Of a stretch of DNA of 64,000 nt, positions 26,438-29,825 are shown in pieces (positions within the stretch are counted from its first letter, which is position 1; every line of letters begins with the position of its first letter). Made by a program: the position numbers and the translations under genes. The notes under the pieces are model-generated. The model was given only the letters and a program-made list of their open reading frames with translations, did no database searches and had not been told where the DNA came from. This stretch comes from Escherichia coli. GTDB lineage: Bacteria; Pseudomonadota; Gammaproteobacteria; Enterobacterales; Enterobacteriaceae. The DNA is taken from NCBI RefSeq assembly GCF_001677475.2, contig NZ_CP015229.1; one strand, given 5' to 3'.

Positions 26438-27394
26438 TTAATTCCCCTGCATCGCCCGCATTCTTGCCGCATCTTCCCCCGGCGTCACACCGAAGTAACG
26501 TTTAAACTCACGGCTAAATTGCGATGCGCTTTCGTAACCGACGCGCATCGCCGCCGCGCTGGCCTTCATTCCGTCGTGGATGATCATCATCCGCGCCTTA
26601 TGCAGACGGTAATTCTTCAAATACTGCAACGGCGAGGTACTGGTGACAGACTTAAAATTATGGTGGAACGCCGATACGCTCATGTTGGCTTCTGCCGCCA
26701 GTTGCTCGACGCTCAGGTTTTCGGTGTATTTATTCTCAATCCGTTTCAGCACGCGGCTAATCAGGCTGAAGTGAGTCTGGCGACTGACCAGCGCCAGTAA
26801 CGCGCCGCCGCAAGGTCCGGTCAGCACGTAATACAGAATTTCGCGGATGATCTGTTTGCCGAGAATACGCGCATCCAGTGGTCGCTCCATCACGTCGAGT
26901 AACCGCTCCGCCGCGCATAAAATCTCTTCTGATAACGTGGCGGAGTTAATCCCGCTGGCTGCCATCGACGGCTGGAAATGCTCATCTTCGCCAATGTCCA
27001 TCAACAGTTCCTGTAACTGCAAAATATCGACATTGAGACGCAACCCTGCCAGCGGCACCTCTGACGTGGCATAGGTTTCGCACTCAAACGGCAACGGCAC
27101 CGTCAGCAGCAGGTATTCATTGGCATCATAACGAAACACGCGTTCATTGATATAACCGATTTTATGTCCGGAAAAGAGAATTATGATGCCAGGCTCGTAC
27201 ATCACCGGTGTACGTGCGAAAGGCGTCTCGCCATACAACAAACGCACATCGGGCAACAGCTCTGACAAACCATTTTCTTTATTTTTCAGTTTATTAACTT
27301 TATTCGCCAGCAAGCGGCAAATCTCTTCACGTTTCATATCGCGTAATTTCTTAGGAATAATGCGGCAATTTGATTGTGCGCAATTTTGTAGCAT
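26438..27394 (-). CDS. yqhC: AraC-family transcriptional activator of yqhD-dkgA (318 aa)
   Basis: C-terminal AraC HTH; start chosen at Met58 of track ORF to give the K-12 length. Confidence 0.88.
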
Positions 27395-27530
27395 TTCTCC
27401 AGCACTCTGGAGAAATAGGCAAGACATTGGCAGAAATGAGCATTGAGAGCCAGGGCGCTGGCGATCACAATGAAAAACATCAGGCAGATCGTTCTCTGCC
27501 CTCATATTGGCCCAGCAAAGGGAGCAAGTA

Positions 27531-28694
27531 ATGAACAACTTTAATCTGCACACCCCAACTCGCATTCTGTTTGGTAAAGGCGCAATCGCTGGTTTACGCG
27601 AACAAATTCCTCACGATGCTCGCGTATTGATTACCTACGGCGGCGGCAGCGTAAAAAAAACCGGCGTTCTCGATCAAGTTCTGGATGCCCTGAAAGGCAT
27701 GGACGTGCTGGAGTTTGGCGGTATTGAGCCAAACCCGGCTTATGAAACGCTGATGAACGCCGTGAAACTGGTTCGCGAACAGAAAGTGACTTTCCTGCTG
27801 GCGGTTGGCGGCGGTTCTGTACTGGACGGTACCAAATTTATCGCCGCAGCGGCTAACTATCCGGAAAATATCGATCCGTGGCACATTCTGCAAACGGGCG
27901 GTAAAGAGATTAAAAGCGCCATCCCGATGGGCTGTGTGCTGACGCTGCCAGCAACCGGTTCAGAATCCAACGCAGGCGCGGTGATCTCCCGTAAAACCAC
28001 AGGCGACAAGCAGGCGTTCCATTCTGCCCATGTTCAGCCGGTATTTGCCGTGCTCGATCCGGTTTATACCTACACCCTGCCGCCGCGTCAGGTGGCTAAC
28101 GGCGTAGTGGACGCCTTTGTACACACCGTGGAACAGTATGTTACCAAACCGGTTGATGCCAAAATTCAGGACCGTTTCGCAGAAGGTATTTTGCTGACGC
28201 TGATCGAAGATGGTCCGAAAGCTCTGAAAGAGCCAGAAAACTACGATGTGCGCGCCAACGTCATGTGGGCGGCGACTCAGGCGCTGAACGGTTTGATTGG
28301 CGCTGGCGTACCACAGGACTGGGCAACGCATATGCTGGGCCACGAACTGACTGCGATGCACGGTCTGGATCACGCGCAAACACTGGCTATCGTCCTGCCT
28401 GCACTGTGGAATGAAAAACGCGATACCAAGCGCGCTAAGCTGCTGCAATATGCTGAACGCGTCTGGAACATCACTGAAGGTTCCGATGATGAGCGTATCG
28501 ACGCCGCGATTGCCGCAACCCGCAATTTCTTTGAGCAATTAGGCGTGCCGACCCACCTCTCCGACTACGGTCTGGACGGCAGCTCCATCCCGGCTTTGCT
28601 GAAAAAACTGGAAGAGCACGGCATGACCCAACTGGGCGAAAATCATGACATTACGCTGGATGTCAGCCGCCGTATATACGAAGCCGCCCGCTAA
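27531..28694 (+). CDS. yqhD: NADPH-dependent aldehyde reductase, iron-containing alcohol dehydrogenase family (387 aa)
   Basis: [27 protein letters not shown]; GGGS nucleotide-binding motif. Confidence 0.96.
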
Positions 28695-28798
28695 GCTTTT
28701 TACGCCTCAAACTTTCGTTTTCGGGCATTTCGTCCAGACTTAAGTTCACTACACCTCACCGGAGCCTGCTCCGGTGAGTTCATATAAAGGAGGAACGT

Positions 28799-29626
28799 AT
28801 GGCTAATCCAACCGTTATTAAGCTACAGGATGGCAATGTCATGCCCCAGTTGGGACTGGGCGTCTGGCAAGCAAGTAATGAGGAAGTAATCACCGCCATT
28901 CAAAAAGCATTAGAAGTGGGTTATCGCTCGATTGATACCGCCGCGGCCTACAAGAACGAAGAAGGTGTCGGCAAAGCCCTGAAAAATGCCTCAGTCAACA
29001 GAGAAGAACTGTTCATCACCACTAAGCTGTGGAACGACGACCACAAGCGCCCCCGCGAAGCCCTGCTCGACAGCCTGAAAAAACTCCAGCTTGATTATAT
29101 CGACCTCTACTTAATGCACTGGCCCGTTCCCGCTATCGACCATTATGTCGAAGCATGGAAAGGCATGATCGAATTGCAAAAAGAGGGATTAATCAAAAGC
29201 ATCGGCGTGTGCAACTTCCAGATCCATCACCTGCAACGCCTGATTGATGAAACTGGCGTGACGCCTGTGATAAACCAGATCGAACTTCATCCGCTGATGC
29301 AACAACGCCAGCTACACGCCTGGAACGCGACACACAAAATCCAGACCGAATCCTGGAGTCCATTAGCGCAAGGAGGAAAAGGCGTTTTCGATCAGAAAGT
29401 CATTCGCGATCTGGCAGATAAATACGGCAAAACTCCGGCGCAGATTGTTATCCGCTGGCATCTGGATAGCGGCCTGGTGGTGATCCCGAAATCGGTCACA
29501 CCTTCACGTATTGCCGAAAACTTTGATGTCTGGGATTTCCGTCTCGACAAAGACGAACTCGGCGAAATTGCAAAACTCGATCAGGGCAAGCGTCTCGGTC
29601 CCGATCCTGACCAGTTCGGCGGCTAA
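28799..29626 (+). CDS. dkgA: 2,5-diketo-D-gluconate reductase A / methylglyoxal reductase, AKR family (275 aa)
   Basis: MANPTVIKLQDGNVMPQLGLGVWQ. Confidence 0.96.
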   Translation: MANPTVIKLQDGNVMPQLGLGVWQASNEEVITAIQKALEVGYRSIDTAAAYKNEEGVGKALKNASVNREELFITTKLWNDDHKRPREALLDSLKKLQLDYIDLYLMHWPVPAIDHYVEAWKGMIELQKEGLIKSIGVCNFQIHHLQRLIDETGVTPVINQIELHPLMQQRQLHAWNATHKIQTESWSPLAQGGKGVFDQKVIRDLADKYGKTPAQIVIRWHLDSGLVVIPKSVTPSRIAENFDVWDFRLDKDELGEIAKLDQGKRLGPDPDQFGG

Positions 29627-29825
29627 CGTGCAAATTCTCCCGGTGGCGGTAATGTTCCGCTACCGGACTTTTCAGAAATCATTTATTCCCCTCGCGTCCC
29701 GCCCGTTGTTACTCTTCCTTGTTCAGGAATGCCAAATATAAGGACATCATCATGCAGAGCCGGAAGCTCTTAAAAGAACAACTCATCTATATCCGGGATA
29801 AACGCAACGGAGAGGTGAAAAACAG

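Follow-up and report, generated by a model that had tools for sequence, protein, structure and literature searches.

A conserved RNA stem-loop between yqhD and dkgA of Escherichia coli is a candidate exonuclease barrier or processing element within the operon

Hairpins between the cistrons of an operon can stabilise part of the transcript and uncouple the genes on either side, as with the REP sequence of malE-malF, the structure between iscR and iscS and the puf operon of Rhodobacter. Operon transcripts also yield RNase E-cut RNAs such as CpxQ and SroC, the latter from the gltI-gltJ spacer, which end in a true terminator whose U-tail binds Hfq. A further small-RNA family, ES173, is attributed to an RNA-seq study of E. 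coli by Raghavan et al. in 2011. Protective stem-loops that are poor in downstream uridines set steady-state 3′ ends in E. coli, dependent on PNPase and RNase II (PMC6061677).

The genes yqhD and dkgA encode the main inducible aldehyde reductases of E. coli, and are much used or deleted in metabolic engineering for furfural tolerance and for the production of diols and other alcohols. They are treated in the literature as one YqhC-activated unit, both genes being YqhC-dependent. The yqhD promoter carries a 24-bp palindrome (PMC6115493), and by gSELEX YqhC was bound only at the yqhC/yqhD spacer (PMC8249747). We analysed this locus in a 64,000-nt stretch of an E. coli genome (contig NZ_CP015229.1, assembly GCF_001677475.2; hereafter the window), with an offset of +3127824 from window to K-12 coordinates. 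The divergent gene yqhC lies upstream of yqhD. A promoter scan found a promoter-like site for yqhD-dkgA at 27443-27471 (+ strand; TTGAGA, a 17-nt spacer and CACAAT), and both hexamers are kept across genera in the alignment. It is followed by the coding sequence of the NADPH-dependent aldehyde reductase YqhD (27531-28694, +; b3011 in K-12), identified from the list of open reading frames, and, after an untranslated spacer of 104 nt, by that of the aldo-keto reductase DkgA (28799-29626, +; open reading frame list and K-12 annotation). The dkgA ATG stands at 28799, behind a Shine-Dalgarno sequence, AAGGAGG, at 28787-28793 (+). Beyond dkgA, the operon terminator (29640-29674, +) has a 10-bp stem with a fold of −20.5 kcal/mol followed by ACUUUUCA, and served as our positive control; the supplement of Adams et al. 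gives a Term-seq 3′ end after dkgA at K-12 position 3157494, which is 29670 in the window.

The promoter palindrome, ATTTCTCCAGCACTCTGGAGAAAT, occupies 27394-27417 in the yqhC/yqhD spacer, as part of the published YqhC-bound promoter region. Its core, TTCTCCAG-N4-CTG(G/T)AGAA, is kept in nearly all of 81 aligned sequences and deviates in a few (for example L033, L038 and L071). The annotated E. coli yqhC start (27392-27394) overlaps this palindrome and is not kept outside Escherichia. Gene calls for yqhC measure 297-299 aa in four genera, Klebsiella, Raoultella, Cronobacter and Salmonella, and in L090, a metagenomic contig whose YqhD is named Intestinirhabdus alba by one source, compared with 318 aa in K-12. 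The K-12 start may therefore be an extension peculiar to the lineage or a mis-call. Within the yqhD-dkgA spacer, the promoter scan detected no sigma-70-like promoter in E. coli, and a relaxed scan gave no promoter position common across species, so that an internal sigma-70 promoter for dkgA was rejected as a candidate. As the spacer has no conserved promoter and YqhC binds only at the yqhC/yqhD spacer, dkgA needs read-through from yqhD.

Between these two co-transcribed, read-through cistrons lies the hairpin studied here, which is intercistronic in that sense. A first-pass annotation of the sequence had placed an inverted repeat at 28755-28778, and a repeat search recovered it at exactly that position, with fully complementary (100%) arms of 11 nt (28755-28765 and 28768-28778) set 2 nt apart. 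A 2-nt loop is impossible, so the RNA folds into a 10-bp stem with a CCUG loop (5′ arm 28755-28764, loop 28765-28768, 3′ arm 28769-28778, + strand). The stem-loop is stable and GC-rich, with seven G-C pairs, a fold of −18.8 kcal/mol that accounts for 0.85 of the ensemble and a z-score of −4.54; none of 200 shuffled sequences folded as well. The coordinates also bear out its location between the yqhD stop and the dkgA ribosome-binding site, 60 nt past the former (which ends at 28694) and 10 nt ahead of the GGAGG core at 28789-28793. On its 5′ side is a C/A-rich stretch with a single G (28744-28754, +), and on its 3′ side an A/U-rich tail, UUCAUAUAAA (28779-28788, +), that is predicted to be single-stranded and leads to the Shine-Dalgarno sequence.

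The 24-mer occurs once in the window, where no chance matches are expected, and 5412 of 5426 complete E. coli genomes have it at a single locus each, a count in which the two places reported per genome are taken as the two strands of the palindrome. In K-12, no repeat_region, REP or RNA gene is annotated at the hairpin, and as a single-copy feature it does not have the multi-copy character of REP or BIME elements. In E. coli strain E69 (L004:2451-2474) we found the exact reverse complement of the window hairpin, with a CAGG loop in place of CCTG. The palindrome appears to have been inverted here, consistent with the loop sequence being irrelevant. The window also carries a T at 28750, where the Escherichia loci that we fetched and the best matches listed from the 5412 complete E. 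coli genomes have an A; the best of those listed matches has 97.4% identity over 38 nt. The T appears to be a private substitution in the stretch between hairpin and upstream conserved block.

To follow the spacer across species, we scanned for DkgA in one genome per species, which gave 80 Enterobacteriaceae loci from more than 30 genera, with yqhD directly upstream of dkgA in all 80. Ten further loci were fetched through YqhD, for 90 in all; yqhD is followed by a 275-aa aldo-keto reductase gene in nine of these ten and by one of 284 aa in L090. L060 and protein P0057 come from assemblies labelled Chryseobacterium sp. 18061 and Vagococcus sp. WN89Y whose yqhD-dkgA is typically enterobacterial, probably through contamination or mislabelling. 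In the set of 81 sequences made up of the 80 loci and the window, 79 have a GC-rich hairpin of 7-14 bp at the same position, and the median for the set is 10 bp and −17.8 kcal/mol. The gap from the conserved block to the hairpin is 5-13 nt in 79 of the 81, and the distance from the hairpin to the ATG is 17-25 nt in loci without an insertion.

Covariation was assessed on a structure-blind MAFFT alignment of the 72 distinct intergenic spacers (alignment A1). RNAalifold predicted the hairpin helix and no other helix in the spacer. The cells of the hairpin pairs were paired in 90.1% of cases, against 75.8 ± 0.8% after shuffling and 34–53% when partners were slid; 120 cells were compensatory where 32 ± 7 were expected, and nine of the ten pairs showed changes on both sides. 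Mean pairwise identity in the hairpin was 0.525, compared with 0.55 at third codon positions of the flanking genes. A sequence that changes at a near-neutral rate while its pairing is held indicates that the structure is under selection. G·U or U·G pairs numbered 45 and A·C or C·A combinations 9 (counts that are not phylogenetically independent), and this excess points to selection on the sense-strand RNA rather than on DNA or an antisense RNA. On this comparative evidence the hairpin is real and kept by selection as a plus-strand RNA structure across the Enterobacteriaceae.

The first-pass annotation had noted that no T-run follows the hairpin, and this is correct: the 8 nt after the stem are TTCATATA, with two consecutive T only, and the tail is U-poor in most species. 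Read as RNA, the E. coli tail UUCAUAUA is borderline, beginning with UU and having four T in eight, and a terminator scan of the window did not call the site. At least five T in the 8 nt after the stem were found in 4 of the 81 sequences and at least four in 24, whereas 46 have one or two and nevertheless keep the stem; in Cedecea neteri a GC stem with TTTTT directly behind it makes a textbook case. The U-rich tract of about 7-8 nt expected of an intrinsic terminator is thus missing. With so few tails carrying five T or more, the hairpin is not a canonical terminator family-wide, and with U-poor tails in most species termination cannot be its conserved function, though weak termination may be possible in some lineages. 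The accessible Term-seq table of Adams et al. lists no end between K-12 3153564 and 3157494, a weak negative for an operon that is poorly expressed without aldehydes, and the accessible Term-seq, TSS, RIL-seq, TIER-seq and excised-ncRNA supplements contain no mapped RNA end or interaction for the spacer.

Two neighbouring features had been overlooked by the first-pass annotation: a match to ES173 and a conserved 32-nt block. The segment 28697-28760 (+) matches ES173 (Rfam RF02753) above the gathering score of 90 (cmscan, 95.4 bits, E = 6e-20). This match covers the adjacent segment rather than the hairpin: it begins 3 nt past the yqhD stop (GC↓UUUUU) and reaches 6 nt into the 5′ arm, and the family model is without the hairpin loop and 3′ arm, so that the hairpin is not part of it. 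ES173 is not annotated in K-12 RefSeq. Sub-threshold matches (37-74 bits) at the same position in Citrobacter, Salmonella, Enterobacter, Phytobacter and Atlantibacter show that the conserved region is much wider than the curated family. The upstream helix of the Rfam model was discarded, being mostly invariant or broken, with little covariation, and not predicted by RNAalifold. RNase E cuts at the motif RN↓WUU and prefers AU-rich single strands (PMC5222698), and the 5′ end of the ES173 match fits this motif. Lying directly upstream and running into the 5′ arm, ES173 would fit a processed or stable RNA fragment at the junction.

The block, CTTTCGTTTTCGGGCATTTCGTCCAGACTTAA (28712-28743, +; columns 19-50 of alignment A1), forms the core of the ES173 match and has a mean pairwise identity of 0.854, compared with 0.84 for the dkgA Shine-Dalgarno sequence, 0.90 for first codon positions and 0.55 for neutral sites, and is conserved across more than 30 genera. 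A 16-mer, TTTCGTCCAGACTTAA, is found exactly in 57 of the 90 loci, always in the yqhD-dkgA spacer and nowhere else in those loci. Our analyses of the spacer gave the block no promoter, coding frame, supported helix or identified partner. It is more puzzling than the hairpin, and of more interest: in an operon that has been studied closely, this short stretch is conserved like a first coding position and yet unexplained. The block contains GCATTTCGTCCAGAC (28725-28740), which resembles half of the promoter palindrome (GCATTTCTCCAGCAC) but for a 1-nt insertion. Several candidate functions were rejected. Pairing of the block RNA with yqhC mRNA (−22.8 kcal/mol) was matched or beaten by 75% of 1826 background windows, the palindrome core is unchanged where the block changes, and the E. 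coli yqhC ATG there is not conserved. A second YqhC site on the DNA is at odds with the single site, in the yqhC/yqhD spacer, seen by gSELEX (PMC8249747). A read-through or frameshift peptide or small open reading frame is contradicted by shifts in the frame of the block relative to the yqhD stop between genera, and a minus-strand open reading frame by the missing ATG in Buttiauxella.

The spacer is a hotspot for insertions of palindromic elements. Inserts that we take, from their ERIC1R/ERIC2 primer cores, to be complete or shortened ERIC elements separate the hairpin from the Shine-Dalgarno sequence in L036, L043, L045 and L076; in the Buttiauxella loci L072 and L074 a mini-ERIC has replaced the hairpin; and in L063, a Buttiauxella MAG, two hairpin copies enclose an insert of about 165 nt (2232-2500). 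In Klebsiella and Raoultella (L082-L085 and L088) an extra canonical terminator hairpin of −23 kcal/mol, with TTTTT after the stem in Klebsiella, separates the yqhD stop from the block, and the block and a hairpin of 7-9 bp (9 bp in K. pneumoniae) remain next to dkgA. If the extra terminator is efficient, dkgA expression in these genera needs read-through or an unrecognised promoter. Because block and hairpin stay with dkgA beyond this terminator, the module may serve dkgA rather than yqhD, and the arrangement leans toward the dkgA side. We dismissed the idea that the extra terminator relaxes selection on the hairpin, which has 7 bp in one Klebsiella sp. locus (L082) and in Raoultella but 9 bp in K. 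pneumoniae. At the level of predicted structure, these natural experiments always show some stable stem between the block and the dkgA Shine-Dalgarno sequence; on this evidence the hairpin may serve either neighbour.

We favour, tentatively and at slightly less than an even chance, the reading that the hairpin is an exonuclease-barrier or processing stem-loop, which closes the 3′ segment of yqhD while transcription continues into dkgA. In combining a stable stem-loop with low downstream uridine it has the anatomy of the type described by Dar and Sorek (PMC6061677). From the structure, its conservation on the sense strand, the poor U-tract and the ES173 match, we infer the following scheme of RNA cleavage, stalled exonucleases and an altered expression ratio. 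RNA polymerase would start at the YqhC-activated promoter, read through the 104-nt spacer, since the stem has no usable U-tract after it, and stop at the terminator after dkgA. Once transcribed, the GC-rich 10-bp stem-loop would fold stably. An endonuclease would then cut inside dkgA or in the A/U-rich strand between the stem and the ribosome-binding site, where the tail at 28779-28788 is a candidate RNase E entry site that could be cleaved. PNPase and RNase II, degrading 3′-to-5′, would stall at the base of the stem and leave a yqhD mRNA with a protected 3′ end, and a further RNase E cut past the yqhD stop, at GC↓UUUUU, would give a short, stable, ES173-like fragment. The upstream segment would outlive the downstream one, uncoupling the levels of yqhD and dkgA expressed from one promoter, and in this way the hairpin may set the yqhD:dkgA expression ratio, as had been suggested. 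On induction of the aldehyde operon, yqhD rises 26-fold and dkgA 10-fold (PMC6115493). This unequal induction is compatible with a barrier, not proof of one; different basal levels could explain it. The earlier preference for an mRNA processing or stability element over a terminator holds as far as the selected structure and the U-poor tail go; the function is suggested by the anatomy of the junction. Weighing against the barrier are the accessible Term-seq table, which has no mapped 3′ end at 28779-28785, the end of the ES173 model, which falls inside the 5′ arm and not after the stem, the arrangement in Klebsiella and Raoultella, and the distance from hairpin to ATG, which is as constrained as that from block to hairpin.

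A leaky intrinsic terminator or attenuator, at which part of the polymerases would stop and so lower dkgA relative to yqhD, is an improbable alternative. The stem has the same length as that of the operon terminator, 10 bp, and a similar energy (−18.8 versus −20.5 kcal/mol), the E. coli tail and the 24 sequences with at least four T, with C. neteri at the extreme, go some way towards a U-tract, and such structures can change mode through their U content, according to Dar and Sorek (PMC6061677). The terminator scan, however, does not call the site, the stem is kept where the tail has one or two T, the Term-seq table lists an end after dkgA and none at the hairpin, and the YqhC dependence of both genes is that of one operon in the literature. 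Still harder to sustain, and in our estimate very improbable, is an action of the palindrome as DNA, whether as the operator of a dimeric regulator, a cruciform or the relic of a mobile palindromic repeat. A perfect palindrome, a spacer that attracts palindromic ERIC insertions and the exact reverse complement in one E. coli lineage (L004) might suggest it, but pairing is kept and sequence is not, where an operator would show the opposite, the bias of G·U over A·C implies selection on one RNA strand, and the hairpin is present in single copy, with orthologues in about 90 loci and no REP annotated. The DNA-level reading is thus already largely refuted.

Hairpin and block could form an element of the dkgA 5′ UTR, shielding a processed dkgA mRNA from 5′-end-dependent RNase E, as the 5′ stem-loops of ompA do, or insulating translation through a fixed fold upstream of the Shine-Dalgarno sequence; we regard this as possible but doubtful. 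In every insertion-free locus the ATG follows the hairpin at 17-25 nt, where an ERIC is inserted or replaces the hairpin it is a large ERIC stem that borders the Shine-Dalgarno sequence, the second hairpin copy of L063 adjoins that sequence, and Klebsiella and Raoultella keep block and hairpin with dkgA downstream of the extra terminator. Immediately 5′ of the stem, however, the sequence is C/A-rich and has no conserved site of the RNase E type, and no known transcription start or processed 5′ end falls here. The mean predicted unpaired probability of the Shine-Dalgarno sequence is 0.31 in the wild type and 0.38 with the 5′ arm removed, and inconsistent across species. Two further schemes for this region were rejected: long-range pairing of an anti-Shine-Dalgarno sequence at the yqhD stop with the dkgA Shine-Dalgarno sequence, as in translational coupling (mean z +0.35 relative to shuffles; p ≤ 0.05 in 1.4% of the sequences), and an anti-anti-Shine-Dalgarno switch, for which predicted accessibility did not fall consistently when the 5′ arm was removed. 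Alternatively, ES173, at an extended length of about 82-86 nt, could be a functional small RNA that is released from the operon transcript and has the hairpin as its 3′ stem-loop; the block would be its seed or protein site, and it would act in trans or bind a protein. This is unlikely in our judgement, though it is compatible with an exonuclease barrier, to which it adds a function for the fragment. The ES173 match exceeds its gathering score, the block, with a seed-like identity of 0.85, precedes the hairpin by 5-13 nt, the 5′ end of the match suits RNase E cleavage and related regions score in five other genera; on the other side, the hairpin has no U-tail for Hfq, yqhD and dkgA are absent from the accessible RIL-seq-based sRNA prediction and excised-ncRNA tables, so that the profile of an Hfq-dependent 3′UTR-derived sRNA is lacking, no target was found, with yqhC mRNA pairing no better than background, and K-12 RefSeq does not annotate ES173. 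There is also a minority chance that block and hairpin form a single Enterobacteriaceae-wide module, an extended ES173, that would be recognised sequence-specifically by a protein, an RNase or a partner RNA and give YqhC-independent post-transcriptional control, as a released regulatory RNA or a dkgA leader switch.

If the hairpin does set the ratio of the two enzymes, as the exonuclease-barrier reading would have it, it would offer a simple handle for tuning YqhD:DkgA from one promoter, and would give a clean example, in single copy and with phylogenetic validation, of a stability element inside an operon.

Among described systems, the hairpin belongs with the known intra-operonic and 3′-protective stem-loops, and it borders on a small-RNA family that is known but uncharacterised. 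ES173 (RF02753) shares its spacer and strand and overlaps the first 6 nt of the stem, but its model breaks off within the 5′ arm, and the helix that it includes is another one, with poor support. Like SroC and CpxQ, the junction is proposed to yield a short RNase E-cut operon RNA, with a conserved single strand followed by a terminal stem-loop; unlike them, the hairpin has no U-tail, Hfq or RIL-seq evidence or target. Its GC-rich 10-bp stem and 4-nt loop resemble the operon's own rho-independent terminator, from which it differs in lacking a U-tract in most species and a reported termination-type 3′ end. Closer are the stem-loops of Dar and Sorek (PMC6061677), likewise stable, GC-rich, of terminator-like size, without a uridine tract and proposed to stop PNPase and RNase II, although those are located where Rho-terminated units end and their 3′ ends have been mapped, whereas the hairpin is intra-operonic, 20 nt before dkgA, and has no mapped 3′ end. 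With the intercistronic stabilisers it shares, by its anatomy, a position between two cistrons, read-through and an expected steadier upstream segment. The E. coli examples of these are mostly multi-copy REP sequences, whereas the yqhD-dkgA hairpin is single-copy, locus-specific and covarying family-wide.
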